This document shows positions 6,935-42,326 of a stretch of DNA of 43,442 bases, one piece after another. A program made the translations under genes and the position numbers. The notes below the pieces were generated by a model. That model searched no databases, was not told where the DNA came from, and saw only the letters and a list, made by a program, of their open reading frames with translations. Position 1 is the first letter of the stretch, and the number at the start of each line of letters is the position of its first letter. Location of the stretch: NCBI GenBank assembly GCA_964482065.1, contig CAYZWC010000001.1:1-43442 (forward strand), in the 5' to 3' direction. The DNA comes from an uncultured Gammaproteobacteria bacterium. Its GTDB lineage: Bacteria > Patescibacteriota > Patescibacteriia > JAQUQO01.

Positions 6935-8227
6935 ATGAAAATTTCAGTTATCGGGACAGGGTATGTTGGTCTTGTTACAGGCACGTGTTTTGCTGACATG
7001 GGCAATGATGTTATTTGTGTTGACATTGATGAAGAAAAAATAGAAAAATTAAAAAATGGTGTTATTCCTATTTATGAACCGGGACTTAGGGAGCTCGTGG
7101 AAAAAAATTCCGAGGCCGGGCGTTTGCATTTTACGACTGATATAGAAAAAGTTGTAGGAAATTCAGAATTGATTTTCTTGTGTGTAGGTACTCCGCCAAA
7201 AGAAAGTGGTTCAGCTGATTTAAAATATGTATATGAAGCGGCGCGAGAAATTGCTCAGAATCTAAATGGATATAAATTAATTATCAGTAAAAGCACTGTT
7301 CCTGTTGGCACTAACGGAAAAATAAAAAAGATAATAGGAAATTATTTTTTGGGAGAATTTGGAGTAGCCTCGAATCCCGAATTTTTACGAGAAGGTAGCG
7401 CTGTAGAAGATTTTTTAAACCCGGAAAGAATCATTATAGGCATCAATAATGAGAGAGATAAAAAAATATTGGAAAAACTTTATCAAAATTTTAATTGTCC
7501 TAAAATTTTTACAAATATAGAAAGCGCGGAAATGATAAAGTATGCTTCCAATGCCTTTTTGGCCACCAAAATTTCTTTTATAAATGAGATAGCTAACATT
7601 TGCGAAGTTGTGGGAGCTGATGTTTGTGATGTTGCCAAGGGTATGGGTATGGACAAAAGAATAGGCCCGGATTTTTTAAAAGCCGGAATTGGTTATGGCG
7701 GGTCTTGTTTCCCCAAGGATATTAGAGCACTACACCAAATTTCAGGTGTAAATGGTTATCAGTTTCAGCTTTTAAAATCCGTTATTGAAGTTAATAATAC
7801 TCAACGCTGGTATTTTTTCAGAAAAATAAAAAATATTTTGGGAGAATTAGAAGGCAAGAAAATAGCTATTTGGGGGCTGGCTTTTAAGCCCGATACAGAT
7901 GATATTAGAGAGTCGGTATCATTGGAGATTATAGATAAATTGTTGGATGAAGGGGCGAGGGTTTCCGCTTATGATCCAATGGCTTCCCAAAAAACTAAAG
8001 TGCTATTTCCAGAAGTTGAATATTGCGAAAATCATTTTGACCCTTTAGACTCGGCCGACGCATTGCTTCTTATAACCGAATGGGAAGAGTTTAGAGAAGC
8101 AGATCTGTCTAAAGTTAAAAATTTAATGAAAAGCCCTTTAATTTTTGATGGAAGAAATATTTATTGTCCCAAGAAAATGAAAAAAATGGGTTTTGAGTAT
8201 TTCGGCATGGGGCGACCCAATTTATAA
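6935..8227 (+). CDS. ugd: UDP-glucose 6-dehydrogenase
   Basis: 430-aa ORF with the N-terminal Rossmann motif ISVIGTGYVGLVTG, the catalytic Cys motif GYGGSCFPKD, and the C-terminal UDP-binding GLAFKPDTDDIRES. Confidence 0.9.
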   Translation: MKISVIGTGYVGLVTGTCFADMGNDVICVDIDEEKIEKLKNGVIPIYEPGLRELVEKNSEAGRLHFTTDIEKVVGNSELIFLCVGTPPKESGSADLKYVYEAAREIAQNLNGYKLIISKSTVPVGTNGKIKKIIGNYFLGEFGVASNPEFLREGSAVEDFLNPERIIIGINNERDKKILEKLYQNFNCPKIFTNIESAEMIKYASNAFLATKISFINEIANICEVVGADVCDVAKGMGMDKRIGPDFLKAGIGYGGSCFPKDIRALHQISGVNGYQFQLLKSVIEVNNTQRWYFFRKIKNILGELEGKKIAIWGLAFKPDTDDIRESVSLEIIDKLLDEGARVSAYDPMASQKTKVLFPEVEYCENHFDPLDSADALLLITEWEEFREADLSKVKNLMKSPLIFDGRNIYCPKKMKKMGFEYFGMGRPNL

Positions 8228-8247
8228 TTTAGTATTAATTTTAAAAT

Positions 8248-8433
8248 ATGAAAATTAAAATTGATAAGGAAAAATGTCTTAAATGTGGAACTTGCGTTTC
8301 GTTGTATCCTGAATATTTTCGCTTTGATGATGAAGGTAATGTGGAAATAATTGATGCGGGGAATGTTCCCGAAGATATAATTAGGCAGGCTTTAAGTACT
8401 TGTCCCGTGGAAGCTATAAGCCATGAAGAATAA
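8248..8433 (+). CDS. small single-cluster ferredoxin
   Basis: 61-aa ORF with CLKCGTC (CxxCxxC) plus a distal CP (TCPVEAI), the classical Fe-S ferredoxin pattern. Confidence 0.8.
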   Translation: MKIKIDKEKCLKCGTCVSLYPEYFRFDDEGNVEIIDAGNVPEDIIRQALSTCPVEAISHEE

Positions 8434-8450
8434 TTATTTTATTTAATATT

Positions 8451-8969
8451 ATGGATTTAAAATTAAAAATAAGAGAAATTCCGAATTGGCCCATAAAAGG
8501 GGTAAATTTTAAAGATATTACTACTTTATTGCAGGACGGAGAGGCTTTTAAATTTATAATTGATGAGATGGCAAAGCCCTTTTGCGATAAAGATATAGAC
8601 AAAATAGTGGTTATTGATGCTAGAGGATTTTTGTTAGGCACCCCCATTGCTTATAATCTGGGAGTTGGTATAAGTTTGGTTAGAAAAAAAAGCAAACTTC
8701 CTTATAAAACTATTGAGGGAAGTTTTGAGAAAGAATACGGTCCTGATACTATTGCCATGCATGAAGATACTATTAAAAAAGGAGAAAAAGTTTTAATTGT
8801 CGATGATTTATTGGCCACCGGCGGAACTATGGCCGCTACTATAAGAATGATAGAAAAATTGGGCGGTGATATAGTTGGTATTAGTTTAATTGTGGACTTG
8901 CCTTTTTTGGGCGGGAGTAAAAAATTAGGGGGATATAATATAAATTATTTAATAAGCTATGACAGTTAA
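8451..8969 (+). CDS. apt: adenine phosphoribosyltransferase
   Basis: 172-aa ORF with the PRPP-binding motif VLIVDDLLATGGT. Length and N-terminal FKDIT region are typical of Apt. Confidence 0.9.
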   Translation: MDLKLKIREIPNWPIKGVNFKDITTLLQDGEAFKFIIDEMAKPFCDKDIDKIVVIDARGFLLGTPIAYNLGVGISLVRKKSKLPYKTIEGSFEKEYGPDTIAMHEDTIKKGEKVLIVDDLLATGGTMAATIRMIEKLGGDIVGISLIVDLPFLGGSKKLGGYNINYLISYDS

Positions 8970-9699: not shown

Positions 9700-9713
9700 A
9701 TAAAAAAATATTT

Positions 9714-11024: not shown

Positions 11025-11047
11025 TTTTTAATTACCTCATTTTTTAT

Positions 11048-12036: not shown

Positions 12037-13716
12037 ATGATTAATATAAAAAAAATATATAAAGATTCCATTAGCTCCTTGTATAAAAAGTGGTGGTTTG
12101 TGTTGTATTTTATTTTTATAATAATTATTGCTACGACTGATCTTTCTTGGACGGAAAGAAGTCTGTTTTTTGTTTATTCGTTAATAATTTTTTTGGTTAT
12201 TGAACGAGTTGTAAAAATAAAAAAATACAATAATGCATTGAGACAAGCCGGTCCTTATTCGGAAAATAAATTTTTTTTGTATCTTTTAATTTTTTCCGTA
12301 ATTTTTATTATTGCCACCCGATTAGTTCTTTTTATACGTTTTGGTGAAGCTCCGCTTGGTTACGATACAGGTTATTATTTATCAAGATTTTTAAAATTTG
12401 ATATATCTCTATCTTCACACCGACCTTTGTTTTTAAGCATAGTTCCTCTGCATCGTTTGGGATTGCCGCCTTCGGCGGCGCTTCATGTTATGTATGTACT
12501 TTACCAATTTTTGATTGTCGGAGGTCTTTATATTTTTTTTCGTTTTTCTAACTTATCGAATAATTTAAAATTCACCGCCGCTGGTATTTTCTTTTTTGCT
12601 ATTTCGGCTACGCAGTTTTATGCTTATTGGTGGATGTTCGCCCAGCAGATATTTGCCTTAGGCCTTATGTTTGCCACCTTAGCGCTCCTTTTTAAAAAAC
12701 CTGTTTTAGCAATTCTCACCGGAGGATTGGGTATCATTATTCATACCCCAACTTTTGCGGTGTTTGGCTTTGCGTTGACAATTTTTTTTATTGTTTGGTC
12801 GGCAGCGGATATGATTAAGACAAAAAAATTGAATAAAAATTTTTTTATTATCATGGGCGCGGCTTTAGGCATGTTTTTGATTTTAGTAACTCTCTATACC
12901 GACGCTTTTCTATCATATGTTAATTATATTGTCGAGCATCGTGGATTAACCACCACTTTTCCTGTCTGGGAAGTACCTGAAGCAAAGGGGCTATTCATTA
13001 GTGTGCCTTATTTTAAGCTTTTAAGCTTAATTATAATACCTTTTACTTTGATAGGTCTTTTACGACCTTCGTTATGGGGCAGACCTCTTAGAAAAAATAA
13101 TAATAGTTTTTCGTTTGAAATATTATTATTATTCCTATACATTATCTTTATAACCCTGCTTATTTTGATCTCCTTTCCTTTTATTTACCAAAATCGCTTT
13201 ATTATAATTTTTGATCTTTTTCTTATTATCTTTGCCACTCCCACGTTTGTTAGTTTTACCCGTTATTTTTTTAAAGAGAAATTTGGCTCGGTTATTTTGA
13301 TTATGTTTTTATTAACTCTTTTTGTGCGTTCCGGTATTATAGTTTGGGAACAAAAACCTTATATATATAATAATGAATTGCAGGATATCAAAAACGTTGC
13401 TTTGTGTACCGAGAAAAATGTTTATATTATGGCCACTCTAAATACCTATGCTCCCTGGGTAGCTGGATATTCTCGCCGCCCGTCGATTGGTCCCGGTCTC
13501 GGTTATGATCTGTGGGATTTGCCGCAATGGATAGAATTTTGGGAAAGTGAGGACAATAATAGAAGATTAGAATTATTAAATATGTATGATTATCCTCTTT
13601 ATATTTTCTTAAGTTCCCACCAAGATTCCTCATTACCATTTTATCAATTTATAATAAGTGATAGCCATTTTACCAAAATTAATAGTCATATTTGGAAATA
13701 TAACCCAGGAATATGA
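12037..13716 (+). CDS. polytopic membrane protein, possible GT-C-fold glycosyltransferase
   Basis: 559-aa ORF with about 12 or more hydrophobic helices over the first ~430 aa, followed by a ~120-aa soluble C-terminal domain. This architecture resembles the ArnT/PMT/oligosaccharyltransferase type. No diagnostic motif was confirmed. Confidence 0.4.
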   Translation: MINIKKIYKDSISSLYKKWWFVLYFIFIIIIATTDLSWTERSLFFVYSLIIFLVIERVVKIKKYNNALRQAGPYSENKFFLYLLIFSVIFIIATRLVLFIRFGEAPLGYDTGYYLSRFLKFDISLSSHRPLFLSIVPLHRLGLPPSAALHVMYVLYQFLIVGGLYIFFRFSNLSNNLKFTAAGIFFFAISATQFYAYWWMFAQQIFALGLMFATLALLFKKPVLAILTGGLGIIIHTPTFAVFGFALTIFFIVWSAADMIKTKKLNKNFFIIMGAALGMFLILVTLYTDAFLSYVNYIVEHRGLTTTFPVWEVPEAKGLFISVPYFKLLSLIIIPFTLIGLLRPSLWGRPLRKNNNSFSFEILLLFLYIIFITLLILISFPFIYQNRFIIIFDLFLIIFATPTFVSFTRYFFKEKFGSVILIMFLLTLFVRSGIIVWEQKPYIYNNELQDIKNVALCTEKNVYIMATLNTYAPWVAGYSRRPSIGPGLGYDLWDLPQWIEFWESEDNNRRLELLNMYDYPLYIFLSSHQDSSLPFYQFIISDSHFTKINSHIWKYNPGI

Positions 13717-14135
13717 AAAAATCCGCTATAAATTTTATTAAAAATTTTTTTATTATAATTATTATATTGTTTATTTTGTCTGGAGTTTTAATGATTTGGT
13801 TTTCTTTGCTGGATTCATTGCGTATTGTTTTTGGAGCATTTTCCGTGTTAGCATTACCTGGATTTTTTTTAAGTTACATCTTTTTTCCAAATGCTGCACC
13901 ATATACAGAACAGCCGGATGTTAAAAATTCAAAATCGTTGGATTATATTGAGAGGGGTATCCTCAGTTTATTTTTTTCCATTTCTATGGTAACATTAGCA
14001 TTGACTTTTTTGCGCCGTATTGAGATTATTCTTTCCCCTTTTATTATAACGATGGTTGTTTTGGTTATTAATGTTGTATGTTTAGTTGGCGCTTTACTTG
14101 TGCATTGGCGTTGGCGTTTAAACAAAAGTAAATAA
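13713..14135 (+). CDS. small 4-TM membrane protein of unknown function
   Basis: 140-aa ORF with four clear hydrophobic segments. Its start overlaps the preceding stop (ATGA), implying translational coupling. Confidence 0.5.
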   Translation: MKKSAINFIKNFFIIIIILFILSGVLMIWFSLLDSLRIVFGAFSVLALPGFFLSYIFFPNAAPYTEQPDVKNSKSLDYIERGILSLFFSISMVTLALTFLRRIEIILSPFIITMVVLVINVVCLVGALLVHWRWRLNKSK

Positions 14136-14951: not shown

Positions 14952-16193
14952 ATGTCTAATAAAAAAGATAGTTTAAAATTTGTAATTATTGGCCATGTTG
15001 ACCACGGCAAATCCACTTTGATAGGACGATTGCTTTATGATACTAATTCTCTTTCGCCAGAAAAGATTATGGAGATGGAAAAATGTTCCAGCGACTTGGG
15101 AAGGAAGTCGGAGTTTGCTTTTATTCTGGATCATCTTGAAGAAGAGCGCAGCCAGGGCATTACCATTGATACCGCCCAGATTTTTTTTGATACGCCGGAA
15201 AGGGAATATGTCATCATTGATGCTCCGGGTCATGTGGAATTTGTAAAAAATATGATTACCGGAGCTTCCCAAGCCGACGCGGCCATTTTGATAGTTAGCG
15301 GTAAAGAAGGCATGCAGGAGCAAACCAGGCGGCATTCTTATATTTTAAGTTTATTGGGGATTAAGCAGGTTGCCGTAGCGGTGAATTTATGGGAGGATCA
15401 ATTGCCCGGTGCCGAGGATGATTTTAAAAAAATAAAAAAGGAAATTGAAGAGTTTTTCGGCAAGATTAATATCAGCGCTGGCTGCATTGTTCCGATTGTC
15501 GCCACCGAAGGAGATAATATAGCTTCCAAGTCTGAAAGATTTAAATGGTATCGGGGCGAGACTATTTTGGAAGTCCTGGCTGATTTTAAATCAGCTCCGG
15601 TTCTTGAAGAAAAACCTTTGTATTTTGCCGTGCAGGATGTTTATAAAATAGAAGATAAAAGGATTTACGCCGGACGGGTAGAGTCGGGGTTTTTGAAAGA
15701 GGAACAAAAAATTAATATTTATCCTGAAAAGACATCCACCACGGTTAAAAGCATTGAAAAATTTCAGGAATCGGTATCCGAAGCCGGCCCGGGAGAAGCT
15801 GCGGGTTTTACCACCGCTGATCCGGTCTTTATAGACCGCGGCAATATTATTTGCGAGGCCGGGTTTCAACCGTATATTACTAAAGAATTTCAAGCCAGTA
15901 TTTTTTGGATGAATAAAAAACCACTCAAGGCGGGAGAGATTGTCGTATTAAAATGCGCTTGCCAAGAAGTGAGCGCGCATTTGGAAATTAAAAAAATAAT
16001 TAATTCTTCCACCCTGGAAGAACAGAATAGAACAGAAAACAATTTAGAAAATTTAGAAGTTGCCGAAGCTATTGTAAAAATGAAAAAGTCGGTTGTAGTT
16101 ACCAAATTCAGCAATATCCAAGAAATAGGGAGATTTGTTTTGCTCCGCGACGATGATATTTGCGCCGGAGGAATTATTACACAAATTTTATGA
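14952..16193 (+). CDS. cysN: sulfate adenylyltransferase subunit 1 (EF-Tu-like GTPase), with no fused APS kinase domain
   Basis: 413-aa ORF with G1 (GHVDHGKST), G2 (RSQGITID), G3 (DAPGH) and EF-Tu-like domains II/III. The G4 position reads NLWE instead of NKxD. The protein ends after domain III. Confidence 0.8.
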   Translation: MSNKKDSLKFVIIGHVDHGKSTLIGRLLYDTNSLSPEKIMEMEKCSSDLGRKSEFAFILDHLEEERSQGITIDTAQIFFDTPEREYVIIDAPGHVEFVKNMITGASQADAAILIVSGKEGMQEQTRRHSYILSLLGIKQVAVAVNLWEDQLPGAEDDFKKIKKEIEEFFGKINISAGCIVPIVATEGDNIASKSERFKWYRGETILEVLADFKSAPVLEEKPLYFAVQDVYKIEDKRIYAGRVESGFLKEEQKINIYPEKTSTTVKSIEKFQESVSEAGPGEAAGFTTADPVFIDRGNIICEAGFQPYITKEFQASIFWMNKKPLKAGEIVVLKCACQEVSAHLEIKKIINSSTLEEQNRTENNLENLEVAEAIVKMKKSVVVTKFSNIQEIGRFVLLRDDDICAGGIITQIL

Positions 16194-17461
16194 CAACAAA
16201 ATCAAAAACAATTATAATCGGATTGGACGGAGTTCCCTACGGTCTGCTTCAAACTCTGGCCAATGAAGGTGTCATGCCCAATACCCAAAAATTAATTGAT
16301 AACGGAATTTTTAAGCAGATGAGCTCTTCCATACCAGAGGTTTCCTCAGTAGCCTGGTCTTCCATTATTACCGGGAAGAATCCGGCTGAGCATGGAATTT
16401 TTGGATTTATGGATTTGGTTCCGGGGTCATACAAGATAAATTTTCCCAATTACAATGATTTAAAAACGCCGGCATTTTGGGAAAATTTGGAAGAACGTTC
16501 TGTTATTATTAACGTCCCCTCCACCTATCCGGTACATTCCATGAATGGAGCACATATATCAGGGTTTGTTTCTTTATTCTTGGAGCAAAGCGTTTATCCT
16601 GCTGATCTTGTTCCCAAATTAAAAGAATTGGATTATCGGCTTGATGTGGATTCGGAAAAAGCCCACGAGTCCATGGATGATTTTTTAGATGATTTGCGAG
16701 CCACCCTGGAAGCGAGAATCAAGACTTATGAATATTTATGGGAGAGAGAGGATTGGCGGACTTTTATGCTGGTGTTTACCGGTACCGATCGTTTGATGCA
16801 TTTTTTGTGGGAAGCATATGAAAATAAGGAACATAAATATCATGAAGAATTTTTAAATCATTTTCGTCGGGTTGATCAAGCCATCGGAGACGTCAGGGGC
16901 AAAATAACCGATGATGATTTGCTGATAATGCTTTCTGATCATGGTTTTGAGCGTTTAGATAAAGAAATTTATATCAATTATTTGTTGCAAGAAAAAGAGT
17001 TTTTAAAATTTAAACCGGGAGAGGAGTACAGTTTGGAAAACATAGACGAAGGCAGCAAGGCTTTTGCCCTGGATCCTTCCCGTATTTATATAAATTTAAA
17101 AGGAAAGTATCCGGGCGGAAGTGTCGCCCTGGAAGACAAAGAAAAGATTTTGCAAGAGCTAGAAGAATTGTTTCAAGAGCTGGAAGTTGATAATAAAAAA
17201 GTAATCAGAGACGTTTATAGAAAAGAGAATATTTATAACGGGCCGGGCTTGGCGCAGGCTCCCGATTTGGTTTTGGTTAGCAATTCCGGCTTTGACCTTA
17301 AGGCCAATCTCCGTGCCACCGAGTTGGCGGGTAAAAAGATTTTTACTGGCAAGCATACGCAGGATTCCGCCTTTCTGCTGGTTAATAATTTTTCGGGAGA
17401 TAATTTCCCTGAAAAAGTCTCCGTTTTTGATGTCGCGAATATTATAAAGAGAAAATTTTAG
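16190..17461 (+). CDS. cytoplasmic alkaline-phosphatase-superfamily protein (type I phosphodiesterase / nucleotide pyrophosphatase-like)
   Basis: I prefer the ATG at 16190, which overlaps the cysN stop (ATGA) and gives MTTKSKTIIIGLDGVPYG. Motifs are IIGLDG (metal Asp), SSVAWSSIITGKNPAEHG (nucleophile region), MLSDHGFE and TGKHT. No signal peptide or TM helix is present. Confidence 0.7.
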   Translation: MTTKSKTIIIGLDGVPYGLLQTLANEGVMPNTQKLIDNGIFKQMSSSIPEVSSVAWSSIITGKNPAEHGIFGFMDLVPGSYKINFPNYNDLKTPAFWENLEERSVIINVPSTYPVHSMNGAHISGFVSLFLEQSVYPADLVPKLKELDYRLDVDSEKAHESMDDFLDDLRATLEARIKTYEYLWEREDWRTFMLVFTGTDRLMHFLWEAYENKEHKYHEEFLNHFRRVDQAIGDVRGKITDDDLLIMLSDHGFERLDKEIYINYLLQEKEFLKFKPGEEYSLENIDEGSKAFALDPSRIYINLKGKYPGGSVALEDKEKILQELEELFQELEVDNKKVIRDVYRKENIYNGPGLAQAPDLVLVSNSGFDLKANLRATELAGKKIFTGKHTQDSAFLLVNNFSGDNFPEKVSVFDVANIIKRKF

Positions 17462-17550
17462 CTTTCATATTATCTTTGACGCGAAGCTCAATTTGCATTA
17501 AACTATAATAAAATTAAATTTTTGATAAATAATAATTTAAACAAATAATT

Positions 17551-18528: not shown

Positions 18529-18532
18529 AATC

Positions 18533-22847: not shown

Positions 22848-22852
22848 ATAGC

Positions 22853-25121: not shown

Positions 25122-26609
25122 ATGGAACAACAGGATTCCATTTTCTCCAAGTTTAAAAAATTATCCAAACACTCCATCTATTATTCTTTCGGTAATGTGG
25201 CCGTGAGATTTTTGTCTTTTTTGCTGCTGCCTCTCTATACTCGTTTTTTGACTCCGGAAGAATATGGAATTATTTATACGATGCTCATCACCTCTTTTTT
25301 TGTAGGTATTATTTTGGATTTGCGCCAAAACGCTTCGGTTTTGCGGCTGTATTATGATCATAAAGACGAGCCGTCCCGATTGCGCGAATATTTAGGCTCG
25401 GTATTTATTTTTTGTATTTTTTTTTCCGCCGCGGTCATAGGATTGCTTTTGTGGCAAGGCGCGCCGATTTTCAATTGGCTTTTCCCGGACATTTCTTTTT
25501 ATCCTTATGTTTTTTTGATTTTAATATACACGTTTTTTCATAATAGTTTGACTTTCCCCATGATGCTTTTTCGTGCTAGAGAACAAGCCTTAAGATATGC
25601 TTTTTTTAATATAGCTAATTTTCTTCTTACTACTGGTTTGATTATTTATTTTGTGGTCGTTTTGCATGGAGGAGCTCTCGGGTATATTAAAGGAAGTTTG
25701 TATTCAGCGGCCGTCTTTTTTGTAGTTTATGTAATTTTGGCGGTTAAAGAAATAAATTTTAGATTTTCTTATTCCTTATTGAAGCCAGGTTTAAAGTATG
25801 GCATCCCTCTTATTCCCATGGCGATCAGCACCTGGATAATACAGGGTTCCGACCGTTTCTTTTTGGCTCGCTACAGTACCTTGTCAGAGGTGGGCCTTTA
25901 TTCCATGGCTTATAATTTGGCCAGCGGCGTGGGTATGGTTGTTTTTAGCGTATCCCAAGCTTGGCAGCCGTTTTTCTTTTCCATTGCCCGTATCAAAGAA
26001 GAAGTGAACAGAGTAATTCCTTCCCTGACTACTTATTTTTTATTGTTTGTCTCCCTGGTTATTTTATCATTATCCCTATTCAGTAAAGAAATTTTATTCA
26101 TCATGACTGACCTAGAGTACCACGCGGCTTATTTTTTAATTCCCATAATTTCCAGCTTATTTTTCTTCGAGGTTATTTTTATCATTACTTCTTATGGCAT
26201 ATCTTTTTTAAAGAAAGTTTATATTCTCTCCGCCATCAACGTTTTGGCCGCTATTATAAATATAGTTTTTAATTATTTATGGATACCGGTTTATGGAATG
26301 TCAGGCGCGGCTTATGCCACGTTGCTTTCTTATATGTTTAAAGCGGCCGCGGTATTTTATTTTTCTTATAAATTTTTTCATATTAAATATGAATTTAAGA
26401 GATTTTTCATGATTTTTGTTAGCGGTTTCATTTTTTTGATGGGTGGTATATATTTAAATAATTTTGAATTAAGCTTTAGAAATGTTTTGTTGAAATGTCT
26501 ATTGTTAATTGGTTTTATCGGCGCCTTATACTTATTCAAATTTTTCAAGCCGGGCGAGATTTCTCGAGTCGCGGCTTTATTTAAAAAATTAAGGTTGTTA
26601 AAGAGTTAA
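25122..26609 (+). CDS. wzx: polysaccharide flippase (Wzx / MOP superfamily)
   Basis: 495-aa ORF with about 12-14 TM helices, a polysaccharide-biosynthesis-protein-like N-terminus (FGNVAVRFLSFLLLPLYTRFLTPEEYG) and a glycan-locus context. Confidence 0.68.
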   Translation: MEQQDSIFSKFKKLSKHSIYYSFGNVAVRFLSFLLLPLYTRFLTPEEYGIIYTMLITSFFVGIILDLRQNASVLRLYYDHKDEPSRLREYLGSVFIFCIFFSAAVIGLLLWQGAPIFNWLFPDISFYPYVFLILIYTFFHNSLTFPMMLFRAREQALRYAFFNIANFLLTTGLIIYFVVVLHGGALGYIKGSLYSAAVFFVVYVILAVKEINFRFSYSLLKPGLKYGIPLIPMAISTWIIQGSDRFFLARYSTLSEVGLYSMAYNLASGVGMVVFSVSQAWQPFFFSIARIKEEVNRVIPSLTTYFLLFVSLVILSLSLFSKEILFIMTDLEYHAAYFLIPIISSLFFFEVIFIITSYGISFLKKVYILSAINVLAAIINIVFNYLWIPVYGMSGAAYATLLSYMFKAAAVFYFSYKFFHIKYEFKRFFMIFVSGFIFLMGGIYLNNFELSFRNVLLKCLLLIGFIGALYLFKFFKPGEISRVAALFKKLRLLKS

Positions 26610-26611: not shown

Positions 26612-28459
26612 ATGGCGAGCAGTATTTTATTAATAGACATCAGTAAATTTGATGATCGGCTCATTCCGCTGGTAAAAGATTTTGAACATGGCCCCGGCGG
26701 TAAGATTATTATTTCTTTTTCTTTACCGATTATTTGGAAAATTAAAGAAATTGTTTCGCCTTCGGTTGAGGTGACCTGGAGCCAAGAAGTTTTGGCCGAT
26801 GATTTTGAAATAATTGATGAGGCTGCTTACAGCATAATTCGCGGCTGGCATGATGGGAAAGGTTTTAGCTCCAATTTAATATATAACGGAGTCAATCTGG
26901 GAGCGACGGTTGAGCATTCTTTGTCCTTGGTTTTGCCTCAGCTTTTAGAGAAAATTAAACTTGTTAAAAAAATTTTGCAGCACGAAAATCCGGGACAAGT
27001 GACAGTAATAAGCAACAATAGCTTATTGGCGGATATATGTGAGAATGTTAAGTCCGGTTTGAGTTTGTCTTTGAACATACAAAGTATTGTTTGGAACGAG
27101 GAAAATTGTCAAGAAAATTTTTTCCGGCCGGAAATTGGCAAGCTGCCCATTATTGATTTTTTAGGCGGACAGCTTATGAGGATGTTTGGTTTCTTTTTTA
27201 AAAAAAAATCCGTTGAAAGAAAAGAAGCAATCTTGGTAAGAAATCCCAAACAGCTTTCCACTCTTTTATCAAAAGATTATAAGATTATTTTTTGCGCGGA
27301 AAAAATTAACCGAGAGCTTACTTTGGGCGTATTACGGAAAAAAGTTCCTTGCCATATAGCTAATGCGTTATTTGCTCGGGATAAAAATAAAATGAAGAAG
27401 TTATGGGGCTCGTTGAACAATGGTCACGAGTTTAAAAAAATTTTTATTTTTGAAGAGGTTGATTTTTGGCCTTTGCTTAAAAAAGATTTTAAAAAAATTT
27501 TTATCACAGCGTTTCCATTCTATATAGGTTATATTAAAAAGGCGGATAAAATTATTCAAAAGACTAAGCCTGCTTTGATGATTTCTACGCCGGGAGTTAC
27601 GGCCCCGGACAGGATACTTTTCGAGCTGGCAGATAAGTATAATATTCCTTCACTGGATATCCAGCACGGTCTTTTGGGAGACCGGCGGGCCAGAGAAATT
27701 ATTTATGCTTCGTGTATGGCTGTCTGGGGAGAAGCAACCAGAAGGCAGTTGGTGAATTGGGGAAATAATGAAGATAAAATTTTTGTAACCGGTAATTATA
27801 AGTTTGATAATTATAAAAATACAACAGGCTTAATACCGCGTGAAGATTTGTGTAGCCAGCTGGGTATTGATCCGACTAAAAAATTTTTTGTTTGGGCGAC
27901 CGGAGTTTATTTTGCCGATAATCTTCCCTACGTTTCTGCGGTTAGAACGCCCGATGAGGGAAGAGTCATCTTTACTTCTATTTTGAAGGTATTAGAAAAG
28001 TTTCCAGAAAAGCAATTAGTTGTTAAAACTCACCCCATGGAAAAACTAGAGGGGTATCTGGATATTTTGGAAAATTTTCCATCCTTAGAGAAACGTGTTA
28101 AGGTAATAAAGCAAGTTCATTTATACAGCCTTTTGAAGGAATCTGAACTTTTGTTTACGCGAGGCTCCACCACTGATTTGGAAGCCATGTTTTTTGGCAA
28201 GCCTATTATTGCTATGAATTTTTCATATGATAATGATTTTTTTTATAAATTTGATATGGTTGGTTGTCCTGTTTTAATAGTTAAAGACCGCAATCGATTA
28301 TACGAAATGGTGCAAAGTGTTTTAACTGATAATTCATTGCTAGCAAATTTACACAAAAGTCAGGAAAAATTTATTCAAGAGTTTGCCGGCGAGATGGATG
28401 GCCGGAGCGGAGAACGCCTGACTGCAGCGATTAAAAAAATTGTTCAAAACAATAGCTAA
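26612..28459 (+). CDS. hypothetical 615-aa protein; the C-terminal half looks like a GT-B-fold glycosyl/ulosonic-acid or glycerophospho-transferase
   Basis: No TM helix is present. The C-terminal half shows a Rossmann-like alternation: LMISTPG, LDIQHG, IFVTGNYKFD, FFVWATG, LVVKTHPME and LFTRGSTTDLEAMFFGKPII. No family could be assigned with certainty. Confidence 0.35.
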   Translation: MASSILLIDISKFDDRLIPLVKDFEHGPGGKIIISFSLPIIWKIKEIVSPSVEVTWSQEVLADDFEIIDEAAYSIIRGWHDGKGFSSNLIYNGVNLGATVEHSLSLVLPQLLEKIKLVKKILQHENPGQVTVISNNSLLADICENVKSGLSLSLNIQSIVWNEENCQENFFRPEIGKLPIIDFLGGQLMRMFGFFFKKKSVERKEAILVRNPKQLSTLLSKDYKIIFCAEKINRELTLGVLRKKVPCHIANALFARDKNKMKKLWGSLNNGHEFKKIFIFEEVDFWPLLKKDFKKIFITAFPFYIGYIKKADKIIQKTKPALMISTPGVTAPDRILFELADKYNIPSLDIQHGLLGDRRAREIIYASCMAVWGEATRRQLVNWGNNEDKIFVTGNYKFDNYKNTTGLIPREDLCSQLGIDPTKKFFVWATGVYFADNLPYVSAVRTPDEGRVIFTSILKVLEKFPEKQLVVKTHPMEKLEGYLDILENFPSLEKRVKVIKQVHLYSLLKESELLFTRGSTTDLEAMFFGKPIIAMNFSYDNDFFYKFDMVGCPVLIVKDRNRLYEMVQSVLTDNSLLANLHKSQEKFIQEFAGEMDGRSGERLTAAIKKIVQNNS

Positions 28460-28463
28460 AGTT

Positions 28464-30086
28464 ATGAATCAAGAAAAAAATAAAGTTTTAATTATCGGAC
28501 TTGATGGGGCTACTTTTGATATTTTAAATCCTTTGATGGAAAAAGGATTGATGCCCAATTTAAAAAAGATTAAAGATCATGGCGCTTGGGGAGAACTTTT
28601 AAGCTCTATTCCTCCTATTACCGGACCATCCTGGACATCATTTGCCACTGGAAGAAATCCCGGCAAGACAGGAGTTTTTGATTTTATGATCAAAGAAAAA
28701 GGCAATTATGAATTGAAGCCGATTACCTCATCTTATCTAAAAAGTAGATCAATTTGGGATTATTTGTCTCGTGATGGCAAAAGATCAATTGTTCTAAATT
28801 ATCCCACTCTTTTTCCGACCTATGAAATAAATGGTATTATGGTAAGCGGTATCGGAAGTTACAAGGGAGATGGTTTTTCTTATCCTAGAGAGGTTGAGAA
28901 TTTTTTGGATGAATTGACTGGAGAATATGAAATAGGAACAGAATTTACAGCTAAAAAATATAAAAATAATGAAGATCTTTATTTTAGGGATTCTCATCAA
29001 GTTTTTAGAAAAAAAGTACAAGCCGCAAAATATTTTTTAGAAAATGAAGATTGGGATTTTTTTGCAGTTATTTTTTGTGAAACTGATTTTTCACAACATT
29101 TTTTGTGGAAACATATAGATTCTTCCCACCCCTTATTTATTCCCCAAATTTCTCCAGGGTATAAAGATAAATTTGAAAAGTATTATCATGATATTGATGT
29201 GGCATTAGGCGAGTTATGGCAAATAGCCGGGGGGGATACTAATATTTTTATAGTTTCTGATCATGGTTTCGGACCGAGTAATTTGTGCTTCAGACCTAAT
29301 TTATGGCTGGAGAAAAAAGGGTATTTAGTAAAGAATAAATTGCCCTTAGCTTTAGCCATTAAAAAGAAAATAATGATCTTATTAAAGGTCATCATGGGAA
29401 AAAGAATTAGAGAGTATGTTTCTAAGAAAATTTCACGGGAAAATAAAGAAAAGTTAAAAGTTGGAGTTCTTTCGGAAATTAATTGGAACAAAACCAAGGC
29501 TTTATCTTTGGAACACACAGGTCCTTTAGGAGCTTTTTATATAGTAGATAACCTGAGCGCTGAAGAGAAAAAAGATGTTAAAAATAATTTGCTCAGAGAT
29601 TTGGAAAAACTACCCGAAGAATATGGCAGTAAATTTAAACCCACTGTTTATGATCCTAGTGAGATATATTGGGGCGATAGGACTTCGGAAACTCCGGATA
29701 TTATTTTTACTATAGCGAATTGGAATTGTTTAATGAAAAATTATACATTGAGTGGTCCGGTATGTCAAGAAATGCCTTGTAATCCGGCCATTACAGGCTC
29801 GCATCGTCCCGAAGGAATTTTAATGGCCGCCGGCCCTGGTATTAAAGAAGGCGTAAAAATAGATGGAGCTAAAATTTTTGATATCATGCCCACTTGTTTG
29901 TATCTTTTAAATTCATCTATTCCGAATGAAGTCGATGGAAAAGTTTTAAGGGCTATGCTGCATGAAAGATTTTTAAAAAATGATTTTAGCGATTTTAATA
30001 TGGGCTCGTCGGAAAAGGAATCAATGGACAATCAAATAGAAGAAGAAAAAATAAAAGATAAGCTTAAGGGTTTGGGCTATTTGTAA
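28464..30086 (+). CDS. second cytoplasmic alkaline-phosphatase-superfamily protein (paralogue of 16190..17461)
   Basis: I prefer the ATG at 28464 (MNQEKNKVLIIGLDGATFD). It shares the motif series of the first paralogue: IIGLDG, PPITGPSWTSFATGRNPGKTG, VSDHGFG and TGSHRPEG. It carries an extra basic/hydrophobic segment (LPLALAIKKKIMILLKVIMGKRIREY...). Confidence 0.7.
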   Translation: MNQEKNKVLIIGLDGATFDILNPLMEKGLMPNLKKIKDHGAWGELLSSIPPITGPSWTSFATGRNPGKTGVFDFMIKEKGNYELKPITSSYLKSRSIWDYLSRDGKRSIVLNYPTLFPTYEINGIMVSGIGSYKGDGFSYPREVENFLDELTGEYEIGTEFTAKKYKNNEDLYFRDSHQVFRKKVQAAKYFLENEDWDFFAVIFCETDFSQHFLWKHIDSSHPLFIPQISPGYKDKFEKYYHDIDVALGELWQIAGGDTNIFIVSDHGFGPSNLCFRPNLWLEKKGYLVKNKLPLALAIKKKIMILLKVIMGKRIREYVSKKISRENKEKLKVGVLSEINWNKTKALSLEHTGPLGAFYIVDNLSAEEKKDVKNNLLRDLEKLPEEYGSKFKPTVYDPSEIYWGDRTSETPDIIFTIANWNCLMKNYTLSGPVCQEMPCNPAITGSHRPEGILMAAGPGIKEGVKIDGAKIFDIMPTCLYLLNSSIPNEVDGKVLRAMLHERFLKNDFSDFNMGSSEKESMDNQIEEEKIKDKLKGLGYL

Positions 30087-36279: not shown

Positions 36280-37494
36280 ATGAATAAGCTTGCGCAAACA
36301 AGTTTGGTGGGAAAATGTTGGGCGGCCTTCGCTTTGTTTTTAGTTTTTTCGTTGTGGCTTAATTTTAGGCCGGAACTTGGGAATCTTTCTATTCATACGG
36401 CACTATTTTTGATCCCTATTATAGTTTTGGTTATTTTACCTTTTGGGCTGATATCTTTTAGGGGGATGGGCAAGTATATTTTTTTGGCCGGTCTTTTTTT
36501 GGCTATTGTGCTTTTGTCAGCCTTAGTTAATGGTGATTTCAGAGATAGTCTTTTTATAAAATGGTCTGTTAGTTTTTTTATTATGATTTTTGTCGCCTCA
36601 ACGATCAGGAACCGCCAGGATATTGTTTTGATTTCAAAAGCCCTTGTTTTAGCTGTGGGTTTTATGTGTTTGTATGGATTTATAACTTGGACTGGCACTG
36701 GAAATGCAGTAAATCCTTTTAATTTTGCCACAAGAAATGCTCTTTCAAACTGGACGACAGCGGTTTATCCTGTAGTTTTAGTTTTATCGCTTTTTCTTTC
36801 CAAAAAAATAGTCGGAAAAATTTTTTGGGGGCTGGTTTTTATAGTAATTGCCTTGGGGCAGTTTTTCACTCTAAATCGCTCTGCCTGGATAATTATTTTC
36901 CTTTCTATTTTTGCCGTCTTCCTCATGTTTAAGAATAAGAAAAAAATAATTATATATTTTTTGATTTTAGTATTGTCTTTTTATATTGTAGGGTCACAAT
37001 GGTTGGAATTTAATGAAGTTGTTAAACGCTCCCAAAGCCTTTCCTCGGTCGAGAACGTAATTTCCGATAACAGCGTGGTGGATCGCTACGAACAAGGTAA
37101 AAAAACTTTTATTATTTTTTCCCGTTATCCGTTGCTCGGCATTGGCCTTGGTAATTATATTTATTATGACACCGGGATTAATATTAGATATCCAAACGAG
37201 GAGAGCCATTCGGTTTATTTTAATGTTTTGGCCGAAACCGGTATTTTGGGACTTTCCAGTATAGCTCTAATTATTATATTATTGTTTAGTTCTTTGTGGC
37301 ATGCTTACAAAGAGAGCACAAACGATGAGGATCGTTATATAGCTATGATGCTTATGATTTCCATTGCCATGATTTTGATTCGCGGCACCACTACCCATGA
37401 AATTCAGTTTATTCCTATTACGCCCTTAGTGATAGGCTTGGCCATAAGATTTTCTATAATTGCGAATCCGAGCCGCATTCAAGAAAAAAATTAG
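36280..37494 (+). CDS. O-antigen ligase / Wzy-like polymerase family membrane protein
   Basis: 404-aa ORF with about 10 TM helices, a Wzy_C-like segment (LNRSAWIIIFLSIFAVFL) and a large loop containing SRYPLLGIGLGNY. Confidence 0.62.
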   Translation: MNKLAQTSLVGKCWAAFALFLVFSLWLNFRPELGNLSIHTALFLIPIIVLVILPFGLISFRGMGKYIFLAGLFLAIVLLSALVNGDFRDSLFIKWSVSFFIMIFVASTIRNRQDIVLISKALVLAVGFMCLYGFITWTGTGNAVNPFNFATRNALSNWTTAVYPVVLVLSLFLSKKIVGKIFWGLVFIVIALGQFFTLNRSAWIIIFLSIFAVFLMFKNKKKIIIYFLILVLSFYIVGSQWLEFNEVVKRSQSLSSVENVISDNSVVDRYEQGKKTFIIFSRYPLLGIGLGNYIYYDTGINIRYPNEESHSVYFNVLAETGILGLSSIALIIILLFSSLWHAYKESTNDEDRYIAMMLMISIAMILIRGTTTHEIQFIPITPLVIGLAIRFSIIANPSRIQEKN

Positions 37495-40697: not shown

Positions 40698-40700
40698 TTT

Positions 40701-41306
40701 ATGTTAAAAAGAATTTTTGATTTTATTTTTAGTTTAATAGGTTTGATAATATTGAGTCCATTTTTGATAATTATTGCCATCTTAATAAAGCTGGAAGATG
40801 GCGGTCCCGTTTTTTATCGAGGAAAAAGAATGGGGCGTTTCGGGCGTTTGTTTAAAATATTTAAATTCAGAAGCATGGTGGTCAATGCCGACAAGATTGG
40901 CGGGCCATCAACCGCCGGCGATGATAAGCGTTTGACTAAGGTAGGTAAATTTTTGCGCAAAGCCAAACTTGACGAAATACCTCAGCTTATTAATGTACTA
41001 AAAGGAGAGATGAGCTTTGTCGGTCCGCGCCCGGAAGTGGAGGAATATGCAAAATTGTATAAAGGTGAAGAGAAAGATATTTTAAATTTGCGTCCCGGCA
41101 TAACCGATTACGCTTCTATTTGGAATTCTGACGAAGGTAGCATCTTGGCTGGTGCCGTTGATCCGGAAAAAGTTTATCTAGAAGAGATTAGGCCCAAAAA
41201 AGTTCAACTGCAGCTAAAATATTTTAAAGAAAAATCATTTTTTACGGATATAAAAATAATTTTTATGACTTTGGCTGCAATCGTGAGGAATTGTATTAAA
41301 AAATAA
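40701..41306 (+). CDS. initiating phosphoglycosyl transferase (small PglC/WbaP-C-terminal-type bacterial sugar transferase)
   Basis: 201-aa ORF with an N-terminal re-entrant helix, PVFYRGKRMGRFGRLFKIFKFRSM and DEIPQLINVLKGEMSFVGPRP. Confidence 0.92.
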   Translation: MLKRIFDFIFSLIGLIILSPFLIIIAILIKLEDGGPVFYRGKRMGRFGRLFKIFKFRSMVVNADKIGGPSTAGDDKRLTKVGKFLRKAKLDEIPQLINVLKGEMSFVGPRPEVEEYAKLYKGEEKDILNLRPGITDYASIWNSDEGSILAGAVDPEKVYLEEIRPKKVQLQLKYFKEKSFFTDIKIIFMTLAAIVRNCIKK

Positions 41307-41312
41307 TTTATT

Positions 41313-42326
41313 ATGGAAGATAAAAAAGAAAAAATAAAAGAAGATAATATTATTATTGCCGATCCCGAGCTGCTTAAAAAAATGTATCGGATCATGCTGA
41401 AAATACGTTTGGTTGAAGAAACTATTGCCGATACTTTATCTCTTCGACCTGAAGAGATTGTTTGTCCATGCCATTTATATGTGGGGCAGGAGGCTGTCGC
41501 CGCTGGAGTTTGTGCGGCGCTTGGAGAAAAAGATTATGTTTTTAGCACGCATCGTAGTCATGGGCATTTTTTGGCAAAGGGTGGTGATTTGAAAGAATTT
41601 TTCGCTGAAGTTTATGGAAAAGACACCGGCTGTTCCGGGGGTCGCGGCGGTTCCATGCATTTAGTTGACCCCAGAATTGGGTTTTTGGGATCTTCAGCTA
41701 TTGTTGGCAGCGGAATTTCTTTGGCCTGCGGAGCCGGCTTGGCTTCCATGCTGCGAAAAGACGGACATCTGGCTGTTACGTTCTTTGGCGACGGCGCTGT
41801 GGGCGAGGGAGTATTTCACGAAACTCTTAATTTTGCCGCTCTTAATAAAATTCCTGTTATTTTTGTATGTGAGAATAATTTGAACGCCACTCACATGCCG
41901 ATTTCCGAATCTTTATCCAATACTAATATTATTGAGTATGCGGATGCGCATAAAATACCTTCGGAAAGAGTTGATGGCAATGATGTAGTTGCGGTATTCG
42001 AGACCGCCGCCAGGCTGGCAGAAAGAGTCAGAGCGGGAGAGGGACCTGTTTTTATGGAATGTATGACTTATCGTTGGCGCGGACATGTGGGACCGAATTT
42101 TGATATTGATAAAGGTTTGCGTACGCGGGAAGAAGTAGATAGCTGGATAGAGAAATGTCCCATTAAAAAGCAAGAAAATATTTTAGCGGAACGTGATATT
42201 CTATCTCCTGATGAAATGGAAGCAATTAAAAAACAATTAAAAGACGAAATTAACGCGGCTTTGGAATTTGCCAAAGAAAGCGCTTATCCGAAGAATTCAG
42301 ATTTTTCCGCTGAAGTTTTTAAATAA
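41313..42326 (+). CDS. thiamine-diphosphate-dependent 2-oxoacid dehydrogenase E1 alpha-subunit homologue
   Basis: 337-aa ORF with HRSHGHFLAKG, the TPP motif FFGDGAVGEGVFHETLNFAALNKIPVIFVCENN and YRWRGH. No E1 beta gene follows. Confidence 0.8.
   Translation: MEDKKEKIKEDNIIIADPELLKKMYRIMLKIRLVEETIADTLSLRPEEIVCPCHLYVGQEAVAAGVCAALGEKDYVFSTHRSHGHFLAKGGDLKEFFAEVYGKDTGCSGGRGGSMHLVDPRIGFLGSSAIVGSGISLACGAGLASMLRKDGHLAVTFFGDGAVGEGVFHETLNFAALNKIPVIFVCENNLNATHMPISESLSNTNIIEYADAHKIPSERVDGNDVVAVFETAARLAERVRAGEGPVFMECMTYRWRGHVGPNFDIDKGLRTREEVDSWIEKCPIKKQENILAERDILSPDEMEAIKKQLKDEINAALEFAKESAYPKNSDFSAEVFK

Follow-up and report, generated by a model that had tools for sequence, protein, structure and literature searches.

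A putative variable surface-glycan island between leuS and comEC in the 1-Mb genome of a Patescibacteria bacterium

Contig CAYZWC010000001.1 of the metagenome-assembled genome (MAG) GCA_964482065.1 carries, at positions 6935–42326, a long run of closely packed genes, many of which belong to families of glycan synthesis and assembly. What would such an array make, where does it end, and is it peculiar to this genome or a regular possession of the lineage? We have addressed these questions using the entire contig, the longest of the assembly (C1; 43,442 nt, hereafter the window), together with related genomes and metagenomic contigs. Gene content, genome context and variability among relatives lead us to conclude, with a probability of about 80%, that the array is the larger part of a variable surface-glycan island lying between leuS and comEC, which would encode a complete assembly line of the Wzx/Wzy type working on undecaprenyl phosphate (Und-P). 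Variable surface-polysaccharide islands are a known class of locus; the present one is notable for how much of its genome it occupies and for certain of its parts.

Setting, boundaries and variability of the island

All 31 consecutive open reading frames (ORFs) between 6935 and 42326 lie on the + strand, with a median intergenic distance of 7.5 nt; the junctions are mostly shorter than 25 nt, seven of them are overlaps, and gaps longer than 40 nt number just three (223 nt at 8228–8450, 89 nt at 17462–17550 and 93 nt at 30087–30179). A preliminary description, made from the sequence alone, had counted about 30 co-directional genes with tight junctions, and had supposed them to occupy several percent of a genome of around 1 Mb belonging to the candidate phyla radiation (CPR); both statements stand. 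The assembly comprises 1,034,890 bp in 133 contigs (GC 39.2%, N50 9.7 kb), is rated at 96.46% completeness and 0.88% contamination, and devotes 3.42% of its length to the span 6935–42326. Since the sampled genomes of the class all measure 0.6–1.6 Mb, and since the named relatives of the leucyl-tRNA synthetase (LeuRS) are 'Patescibacteria group bacterium', Candidatus Falkowbacteria (66%) and Buchananbacteria, the organism is, by its sequences, a CPR (Patescibacteria) bacterium. It probably belongs near the Falkowbacteria/Kuenenbacteria part of that radiation; the closest named relatives of its NeuB and PglF, and of a 559-aa membrane protein that we call unk559, are likewise CPR members (Falkowbacteria, Kuenenbacteria and the Parcubacteria group).

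The features that define the two edges of the island within the window are as follows.

3170..6898, + strand: leuS (Pfam), the conserved left anchor of the island
6935..8227, + strand: UDP-glucose 6-dehydrogenase (UGDH), the first island gene, with the Pfam UDPG_MGDP_dh N-terminal, central and C-terminal domains
41313..42326, + strand: alpha subunit of a thiamine pyrophosphate (TPP)-dependent E1 enzyme (Pfam E1_dh, 231 bits), the last + strand gene of the window
42372..43307, − strand: 311-aa ORF (unk311), between E1-alpha and the E1-beta operon
43376–43389, no strand: 14-bp target-site duplication ACTTGATTTTTACG at the end of C1
43390–43442, no strand: first 53 nt of an insertion sequence (IS#1), a repeat shared by contig ends, at which the contig breaks

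To the left, leuS is separated from the first island gene by 36 nt on the same contig. The flank TrxR-GDH-...-leuS is syntenic with two relatives, the genome G001, which is the only other one of the same family (a sister genus), and the JGI contig Ga0395807_0000227, in both of which TrxR precedes leuS as it does here. The C-terminal part of LeuRS (residues 833–1241) is 70% identical to that of G001, and in G001 a 52%-identical UGDH follows leuS immediately. The synthetase itself is 1,242 aa long and carries an in-frame PDDEXK_3 nuclease domain (aa 277–390) and a Ser_hydrolase domain (aa 652–816); the inserts of its relatives vary, being NUDIX, hydrolase, HAD or PDDEXK domains.

To the right, the preliminary description had the locus end at 42326, and in this respect it has to be revised: the island runs on beyond the window, through a second contig (C29), to comEC. 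The terminal 53 nt of C1 end 35 contigs (A-type) and a second type of terminus (B) ends 27; neither occurs internally, and IS#1 termini make up about a quarter of all contig ends. A complete IS#1 of 1,479 bp is present in the metagenome contig L091 (Ga0307992_1053318; 127–1606, − strand), with one 432-aa ORF that matches rve_3 (DDE integrase) weakly. Both of its ends start with TGTC and carry subterminal repeats of about 21 nt, and a 14-bp direct duplication flanks the element. The transposase and the interior of IS#1 are absent from the MAG, and therefore an estimated 30–35 copies, roughly 50 kb, have gone unassembled. Tandem repeats at 43396–43439 were considered as a regulator-binding array and rejected as such, being subterminal IS-end repeats common to the 35 contig ends.

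The 14-mer ACTTGATTTTTACG abuts the A-type end of C1 and the B-type end of C29, oriented as a target duplication would be, and occurs nowhere else in the genome. From the joined end, C29 encodes in order E1-beta, a class I/II aminotransferase, a DegT aminotransferase, a methyltransferase, a PglF-type 4,6-dehydratase, a DUF218 protein, Wzz (1846–2856; 39.8 bits against a cut-off of 25.5, and 39% identical to a Kuenenbacteria Wzz) and a 487-aa secreted GY-rich protein. The series PglF-DUF218-Wzz stands directly after the pair unk559-DUF1616 in Falkowbacteria, and in Kuenenbacteria PglF is followed by Wzz without DUF218. Because of the shared 14-mer, the adjacency of E1-alpha and E1-beta in relatives and the Falkowbacteria order of PglF-DUF218-Wzz, C1 is joined by sequence to C29. 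At its other end C29 (1–54) shares with C68 (5287–5341) the inverted termini of a second repeat (IS#2), GAGTAACTAGACATTTTGGTGGGGCTAA and GGTTAACTAGACATTTTGGTGGGGCTAA, with a common 8-bp flank, ATTTTTCC, that is apparently a target duplication; about eight further contig ends of each type exist, and the interior of this repeat was not recovered from the assembly. C68 encodes ComEC, a metallo-beta-lactamase-fold protein and NDK, and its junction with C29 is drawn because of the shared flank and because in G001 the secreted-protein gene sec479 is followed directly by ComEC-Lactamase_B-NDK. By these joins the island between leuS and comEC measures about 45.9 kb (36.5 kb on C1 and 9.4 kb on C29, insertion sequences excluded), or 4.4% of the assembly; counted with the insertion sequences it would come to about 49 kb. 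Much of the fragmentation of the MAG is explained by the two high-copy insertion sequences, whose target duplications are usable for scaffolding it.

The 487-aa protein (C29 253–1716, − strand) has an N-terminal transmembrane (TM) segment and GYGYGY repeats. It is the last island gene both here and in G001, where its homologue is 57% identical (locus L011, 8403–9842), and a weaker homologue follows Wzz in Kuenenbacteria; from its sequence and position it could be a glycan acceptor or a component of export or anchoring.

Variability is seen at the same site in the two relatives, a comparison of conserved with hypervariable content that the preliminary description had proposed. The chromosome of G001 is circular (its contig has a terminal redundancy of 3,134 bp) and runs leuS, UGDH, a 31.1-kb co-directional island, the homologue of the 487-aa protein and ComEC-Lactamase_B-NDK; the island takes up 3.4% of that genome (loci L010 and L011, positions 908000–927681 and 1–9842 of its contig C1). 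What the two islands share is their edges only, UGDH (52%) and the secreted protein (57%), apart from generic short-chain dehydrogenase/reductase (SDR) and DegT folds. The G001 island contains no NeuB, CysD, alkaline-phosphatase-superfamily (AlkP) or E1 gene, and encodes instead a 2-epimerase, a TPP decarboxylase (POR_N/TPP_enzyme_C, possibly of the phosphonate type), a HAD-GNAT protein, a hexapeptide acetyltransferase, a GFO oxidoreductase and GMD/Fcl-like enzymes, together with a GT-C protein (AftD-like), a CotH/beta-helix protein of more than 1,400 aa, VTC/DUF4956 and an HD-domain protein. On Ga0395807_0000227, a metagenomic contig from a closer relative than G001 (LeuRS 69% identical), leuS is followed directly by ComEC-Lactamase_B-NDK and the site is empty. 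Conserved flanks with a variable centre are, at the level of sequence, the architecture of O-antigen and capsule loci, and the fact that the island is replaced or missing at the one site is consistent with a surface under diversifying selection. The strongly selected polymer of the preliminary description, which might serve host attachment or immune or phage evasion, is partly supported; the locus is typical of its lineage and not exceptional.

How routine such loci are can be seen from 301 genomes of the class. Wzy_C is found in 300 of them, usually in several copies (six in this genome), and NeuB in 57 (19%), often in two or three copies 10–30 kb apart. A glycan region of 40 kb or more is present in G032, and loci of other families, those of G039 and G085, spread nonulosonic-acid (NulO) and CysDN genes over roughly 20 kb; in all three genomes, as in this one, CysDN lies among glycan genes rather than genes for cysteine synthesis. 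The present genome also has homologues of glycosyltransferases (GTs), SDR enzymes, DegT and phosphoglycosyltransferases (PGTs) on at least 10 other contigs. Heavy investment in surface glycans is thus a trait of the lineage, of which this locus is a rich example and not an outlier. The preliminary description had set against its own reading a large-genome organism in which such loci are routine; the genome is not large, and the loci are nevertheless routine within the class, the 31-kb island of G001 included.

Predicted synthesis, assembly and tailoring of the glycan

Gene families were assigned by Pfam and NCBIfam profile searches with curated cut-offs. From these assignments the steps could follow one another in this way. 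A small PglC-like phosphoglycosyltransferase would start the repeat unit on the lipid carrier Und-P, and GT2, two GT4 enzymes and a BFO_1060-type transferase would add uronic acids, amino sugars and a CMP-activated nonulosonic acid of the Neu/Leg type. Tailoring would include the addition of N-formyl groups, the amidation or amino-acylation of carboxylates by AsnB and an ATP-grasp ligase, possibly a two-carbon branch set by E1-alpha/beta (by analogy with AviB1/AviB2), and a sulfate-derived group introduced via CysDN and the AlkP-superfamily enzymes. Wzx would flip the unit across the membrane, the Wzy_C protein and/or the EpsG-like protein would polymerize it, and Wzz, on C29, would set the chain length; most likely the product would then be fixed to the wall by the LCP ligase that the genome encodes. 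The remaining genes of the array are as follows.

8451–8969, + strand: phosphoribosyltransferase (Pfam)
8959–9699, + strand: PNP_UDP_1 nucleoside phosphorylase (Pfam)
9714–11024, + strand: second NDP-sugar dehydrogenase, UDP-ManNAc/GlcNAc-dehydrogenase-like (Pfam; NCBIfam NDP-sugDHase, 432 bits)
11048–12010, + strand: SDR epimerase/dehydratase 1 (Pfam)
12037–13716, + strand: unk559, EpsG/PMT_2-like membrane protein of 559 aa (11 or more TM segments predicted) that may be a polymerase or a GT-C transferase
within 12037..14135, after unk559, + strand: 140-aa DUF1616 membrane protein (Pfam)
14144–14944, + strand: ATP sulfurylase CysD (NCBIfam PRK05253, 354.9 bits, cut-off 195)
14952–16193, + strand: CysN without fused APS kinase (NCBIfam TIGR02034, 320 bits, just under the cut-off of 336)
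16160..17461, + strand: AlkP1, alkaline-phosphatase superfamily, NPP/PhnA-like (Pfam Phosphodiest)
17551–18528, + strand: radical SAM/SPASM protein (Pfam)
from 18467, + strand: divergent NeuB paralogue (Pfam)
19567–20637, + strand: cytidylyltransferase-cupin fusion (Pfam)
20647–21702, + strand: NeuB (NCBIfam NeuB_NnaB TIGR03569, 457.7 bits, cut-off 399.65)
21684–22847, + strand: NeuC-type hydrolysing 2-epimerase (NCBIfam NeuC_NnaA TIGR03568, 417.5 bits, cut-off 235.9)
from 22853, + strand: sugar N-formyltransferase (Pfam)
23660–25117, + strand: CBS-DegT aminotransferase (Pfam)
25122..26609, + strand: Wzx-type flippase (Pfam Polysacc_synt, 70.6 bits, cut-off 28.2, and Polysacc_synt_3), at least nine TM segments
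26612..28459, + strand: 615-aa BFO_1060-family GT-B protein, candidate nonulosonic-acid transferase (NCBIfam)
28440..30086, + strand: AlkP2, a longer paralogue of AlkP1 (Pfam Phosphodiest; 30% identical to AlkP1)
from 30180, + strand: AsnB-type amidotransferase (Pfam, NCBIfam)
from 32005, + strand: GT4a (Pfam, NCBIfam)
from 33182, + strand: UPF0104/LPG_synthase_TM membrane protein (Pfam, NCBIfam)
from 34156, + strand: CapA/PGA_cap protein (Pfam, NCBIfam)
35234–36271, + strand: ATP-grasp ligase of 345 aa (unk345), assigned by fold
36280..37494, + strand: Wzy_C-family protein (Pfam Wzy_C, 59.1 bits, cut-off 31.7), 12 TM segments
from 37460, + strand: GT4b (Pfam, NCBIfam)
38709–39686, + strand: SDR 2, LegB/ArnA-C-like (Pfam, NCBIfam)
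from 39696, + strand: GT2 (Pfam, NCBIfam)
40701–41306, + strand: small monotopic phosphoglycosyltransferase of 201 aa (Pfam Bac_transf, 209 bits, cut-off 27)

The functional categories of the preliminary description (precursor synthesis, sulfate activation, nonulosonic acid, formyl and amido tailoring, initiation, glycosyl transfer, flipping, and polymerization or ligation) are all represented among these families. The phosphoribosyltransferase and the nucleoside phosphorylase, whose genes overlap by 11 nt and stand 14 nt before the next one, are enzymes of nucleotide salvage and not glycan enzymes, and may feed NDP-sugar synthesis. Precursors would come from the two NDP-sugar dehydrogenases and the two SDR enzymes. 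The UGDH matches the NCBIfam models TuaD at 601 bits (cut-off 700) and NDP-sugar dehydrogenase at 498 bits, and the genes at 9714–12010 have in addition weaker TviB- and TviC-like matches.

The block from 17551 to 25117 appears to be devoted to a nonulosonic acid and amino sugars. The synthase and the hydrolysing 2-epimerase are above their cut-offs, and the latter favours a Leg/Neu over a Pse route. The aminotransferase scores 347 bits with PseC (cut-off 423.5) and 301 bits with the LegC family (cut-off 420), the SDR at 38709–39686 scores 187.6 bits with LegB (cut-off 475), and the cytidylyltransferase reaches 94.8 bits with Pfam CTP_transf_3 (cut-off 22.6), all NCBIfam equivalogs falling below cut-off (best KdsB-like, 70 bits). 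The product may thus be an acid of the Neu/Leg type, and simple Neu5Ac synthesis may serve as an alternative because the LegB and LegC matches are below cut-off. No acetyltransferase for the LegH role was found in the block by NCBIfam or Pfam; a formyltransferase stands in that place. The two halves of the NCBIfam 'spiro-SPASM' fusion TIGR04321 are matched by the radical SAM/SPASM protein (86.9 bits) and the cytidylyltransferase (27.4 bits), which probably act together, since they are fused in other bacteria. The named relatives of NeuB are from the Parcubacteria group (62%) and from Yanofsky-, Taylor-, Magasanik- and Nealsonbacteria (57–59%). Clusters of NeuB, an N-formyltransferase and DegT, a few genes apart, were also seen on two other contigs, probably of CPR origin (the contig of P0171 and L090); in one, the neighbours are a radical SAM/SPASM gene and genes of the folate cycle (5-FTHF cyclo-ligase, FolC-like, FolD and SHMT), in the other HisF/HisH-like genes and a second NeuB. 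These clusters suggest a recurrent pathway for N-formyl (or amidino) nonulosonic acids.

The sulfate module consists of CysD, CysN and AlkP1, whose gene overlaps cysN by 34 nt and is translationally coupled to it. The AlphaFold2 model of AlkP1 has a pLDDT of 91.6; its best folds are phosphonoacetate hydrolase and the nucleotide pyrophosphatases (NPP), at a TM-score of 0.64 and 13–16% identity, and the columns of the metal site and of the Ser62 nucleophile are invariant across 18 homologues. AlkP2 is 28% identical over its full length to a G032 protein encoded beside Wzx-CysN-CysD, and AlkP2-like proteins, found in 16 of the 301 genomes, are enriched among those positive for CysD (11 of 301). 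Five genomes of the class are CysD-positive and negative for the kinase of adenosine 5'-phosphosulfate (APS), namely this one, G032, G085, G098 and G269; all carry AlkP-like genes, and G269 and G098 have the order CysD-CysN-AlkP seen here. Further afield, AlkP1 homologues of 37–64% identity adjoin CysD/CysN, a CysD-like gene or APS kinase across many phyla (Planctomycetota, Desulfobacterota, Nitrospirota, WOR-3, Coatesbacteria, Eisenbacteria, Gracilibacteria and Woesearchaeota; loci L030–L082). In a set of 54 loci from many phyla a 60–75%-identical CysD stands beside the AlkP1 homologue in 15, in 13 of which CysN is present too; a CysD-like gene of about 31% identity lies directly upstream in a further 15, and APS kinase is 0.1–2 kb upstream in four others, directly adjacent in three. 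The closest relatives of both CysD and AlkP1 come from MAGs of Planctomycetota, WOR-3, Desulfobacterota and Woesearchaeota (64–75%), the best within the class being 63–65%. Because CysD is up to 75% identical across phyla, the comparisons point to CysD-CysN-AlkP1 as a horizontally mobile functional unit.

The glycan may accordingly be sulfated in some form, judging from this gene neighbourhood. There is no sulfotransferase family among the Pfam matches of the window's proteins (no dedicated whole-genome search with sulfotransferase profiles was made). It is conceivable, and we put it forward as a doubtful proposal, that AlkP1 and AlkP2 belong to an undescribed class of glycan-modifying transferases that use activated sulfate, with APS as the donor where there is no APS kinase, so that sulfation would be independent of 3'-phosphoadenosine 5'-phosphosulfate (PAPS). 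Members of the AlkP1 family often occur as several paralogues per locus, as would be expected of transferases with different acceptors. The main rival for their role is hydrolysis, in that they may cleave APS or PAP(S). The alkaline-phosphatase superfamily goes unmentioned in a 2024 review of polysaccharide sulfotransferases, and no relevant literature was found on CysDN combined with sulfotransferases of that type.

Among the genes of assembly and transfer, unk559 has no Pfam match. Homologues 39–40% identical to it, one of them named 'EpsG family', are present in Candidatus Falkowbacteria and Kuenenbacteria, and distant homologues carry PF14897 or PF13231 (EpsG or PMT_2 domains). With DUF1616 it forms a conserved CPR pair, which in the Falkowbacteria and Kuenenbacteria loci (L084; L086, 10001–12069) is immediately preceded by a WecA-type transferase and followed by PglF and Wzz. 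It is a second candidate polymerase beside the Wzy_C-family protein at 36280–37494, whose family membership allows for a polymerase, a ligase or an O-oligosaccharyltransferase. The phosphoglycosyltransferase matches the catalytic C-terminal part of the EPS_sugtrans/WcaJ models, and SDR 2 is 48% identical to an SDR that precedes the initiating transferase in the Kuenenbacteria locus. Glycosyl transfer would be shared between GT2, the two GT4 proteins and the 615-aa protein, which matches NF046086 with an E value of 1.6e-30 (106 bits, cut-off 200) and TIGR04396 with 86 bits.

Two further suggestions of the preliminary description, aminoacyl and C2-branch additions, have gained some substance. 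The 345-aa ORF, without a Pfam match, was modelled with AlphaFold2 from 35 homologues (pLDDT 91.6), and Foldseek places it with ArgX/LysX/RimK (E 1e-15, TMt 0.71), agreement with an aminoacyl ligase being at the level of fold only. E1-alpha in the window has a partner in E1-beta on C29 (8648–9628; Transket_pyr and Transketolase_C domains), and by analogy the pair might add a two-carbon branch. A hairpin follows E1-alpha at about 42331–42357. No E2 or E3 is encoded among the genes beside the pair, in the window or on C29 (the rest of the genome was not searched). E1-alpha occurs in three of 150 class genomes (G026, G077 and G090), in all of which E1-beta follows directly and the pair lies beside an SDR; in G026 and G090 it is on the same contig as NeuB, 8–10 kb away. 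E1-alpha was also considered as a remnant of the pyruvate dehydrogenase of central metabolism and rejected in view of its rarity (3/150) and of the contig shared with NeuB in two of three cases. The neighbouring unk311 has no match in Pfam, NCBIfam or the PDB, and sequence searches of the PDB gave nothing useful for unk345, unk311 or the 615-aa protein.

Weighing the alternatives

Several observations weigh against reading the array as one complete assembly line. Same-strand runs of 11–18 genes are frequent elsewhere in the genome, and therefore co-directionality alone is no proof of one operon; searches of the locus for consensus promoters and for terminators returned counts equal to those of shuffled controls, and these two facts together leave one operon, and even one product, unestablished. 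The LegB-, LegC- and PseC-like, BFO_1060 and cytidylyltransferase assignments are all under curated cut-offs. The Wzy_C family spans ligases and protein O-oligosaccharyltransferases as well as polymerases, and the genome has six copies. APS kinase (PF01583, CysC) has no match in the whole 96.5%-complete genome, although this profile finds the kinase in 11 of the 14 genomes used as controls and in six of the 10 other CysD-positive genomes of the class. The contig joins rest on short duplications, and among the 35 × 27 pairs of IS#1 ends no other matching duplication was found.

The array might instead be a mosaic of separately acquired modules serving two or more glycans, or partly non-glycan roles such as sulfur assimilation and nucleotide salvage, with its look of a 'mega-locus' an accident of strand bias and compaction. 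This would account for two polymerase-like proteins, two NeuB paralogues, three gaps of more than 80 nt, the embedded salvage genes and the frequency of same-strand runs, and it agrees with the differing affinities of the parts: CysD and AlkP1 are nearer to other phyla (64–75%) than to members of the class (63–65%), NeuB is nearest to other CPR, and the unk559-DUF1616 core is common to Falkowbacteria and Kuenenbacteria. We see it as a possible explanation, on the unlikely side. A single Wzx (by tblastn with that of the window), one PGT in the island (a second is on C65) and one Wzz found (on C29) fit one assembly line; CysDN has glycan genes as neighbours in this genome as in G032, G039 and G085, the junctions are mostly under 25 nt, and a mosaic origin is in any case compatible with joint function. 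A different product is envisaged if the locus serves general protein glycosylation as in Tannerella forsythia, so that a short oligosaccharide is moved en bloc onto surface proteins (S-layer, pilins or the GY-rich secreted protein); the enzyme responsible would be either the Wzy_C-type protein, in the role of an O-oligosaccharyltransferase, or the EpsG/PMT_2-like GT-C protein. The Wzy_C family does include enzymes of the PglL/PilO type, and its several copies in 300 of 301 genomes are beyond what polymerization needs; the BFO_1060-type transferase is known from the protein O-glycan NulO locus of T. forsythia, the PMT_2 protein-mannosyltransferase domain occurs in remote homologues of unk559, and the conserved secreted protein ends the island both here and in G001. 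Set against these are a Wzz in the same island and an LCP wall ligase in the genome, both typical of polymers, and we regard this alternative as rather unlikely.

That the contig is chimeric or mis-binned, its glycan genes coming from another, larger-genome organism, seems to us very improbable. The suspicion, which the preliminary description had itself raised, could draw on the drop in GC from about 45% at 1–3000 to 32–40% within the locus, on the relatives of CysD and AlkP1 in other phyla and on the division of the assembly into 133 contigs. In composition, however, nothing points to a chimera: when C1 is cut into eight 5-kb pieces, the tetranucleotide profile of each one correlates with that of the remaining genome at r = 0.964–0.982, which puts the pieces at percentiles 28–83 among those of other contigs. 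GC skew is positive across the whole contig, and all its genes are on one strand except 42372–43307. leuS and the island are 36 nt apart on one contig within a syntenic left flank, UGDH follows leuS in G001 too, the edge formed by the secreted protein and ComEC-Lactamase_B-NDK matches G001, unk559, NeuB and PglF are closest to CPR, and the two high-copy insertion sequences account for the fragmentation. A single variable surface-glycan island between leuS and comEC is the explanation that we prefer. Gene content, boundaries, contig joins and variability are what the sequences show; the order of the reactions, the donor and acceptor sugars, the sulfation chemistry, the form of the product (wall polymer or glycoprotein) and its ecological role are predictions from them.

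Significance and likeness to known systems

CPR bacteria are a large share of bacterial diversity whose surface chemistry is almost unexplored, and no literature was found linking Patescibacteria to nonulosonic acids, nor any relevant to CPR glycan loci. The island provides a concrete, bounded example. Its pattern of presence, replacement and absence marks it as a serotype-like locus of surface diversification, and makes it a defined target for work, comparative or at population level, on the host range of episymbionts and the pressure that phages exert on them. Three enzymatic predictions can also be tested on it: Neu/Leg-type sugars that carry N-formyl groups, a C2 branch set by an E1-type pair, and an AlkP-family enzyme coupled to CysDN, which, if the proposal is true, would be a new route to sulfated glycans.

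In NodP/NodQ-NodH sulfation, CysDN with CysC is combined with a PAPS-dependent sulfotransferase. The island resembles that system in having a dedicated ATP sulfurylase in a glycan locus and not in cysteine biosynthesis; it differs in that the genome has no APS kinase and the window no recognized sulfotransferase by Pfam, an NPP/PhnA-like enzyme being coupled to cysN instead. E1-like pairs that add a two-carbon branch to a 4-keto sugar are described as AviB1/AviB2 and Pau11/Pau12 (PMC4425429, PMC4753412). Here, too, homologues of both E1 subunits belong to a cluster of sugar-tailoring genes, and neither E2 nor E3 is encoded beside them, whereas, unlike in AviB1/AviB2 of the Streptomyces antibiotic sugars, the subunit genes are split by an opposite-strand ORF and an insertion sequence, and no AviO2-type partner was identified.

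The legionaminic acid pathway of Campylobacter jejuni and Legionella runs through LegB, C, H, G, I and F. The island shares with it a synthase and a hydrolysing 2-epimerase above cut-offs, a DegT enzyme, a candidate SDR dehydratase and a cytidylyltransferase. It departs from it in the N-formyltransferase that occupies the place of LegH, in the CBS domains on the aminotransferase and the cupin on the cytidylyltransferase, in an additional divergent NeuB and a radical SAM/SPASM protein, and in LegB and LegC matches below cut-off. BFO_1060/Tanf_01245 marks the 5' end of the NulO locus of T. forsythia (PMC5378307). A BFO_1060-family protein together with NulO genes, including a hydrolysing 2-epimerase, is what the island has in common with that general protein O-glycosylation locus, although the BFO_1060 match is 106 bits against a cut-off of 200, the phylum and the envelope are different, and the target in the present case may be a protein or a wall polymer.

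A further likeness is to the K loci of Acinetobacter baumannii, which are Wzx/Wzy-dependent, lie at a fixed chromosomal site, take up well under 1% of a genome of about 4 Mb and in some cases encode legionaminic or pseudaminic acids; one of them, KL49, is described with 8-epi-legionaminic acid (PMC13656337). Unlike a K locus, the island belongs to a monoderm-type CPR host of about 1 Mb, amounts to about 4.4% of the genome and has no Wza/Wzc export genes; it has as extras CysDN with AlkP, a radical SAM/SPASM protein, an ATP-grasp ligase and an E1-alpha/beta pair, and its site is empty in one relative. Like the K and O-antigen loci, it combines in one co-directional cluster an initiating PGT, several GTs, Wzx, a candidate Wzy and a Wzz-type regulator with sugar-nucleotide and NulO genes, and it has conserved flanks, a variable centre and a different cluster at the same site in relatives.

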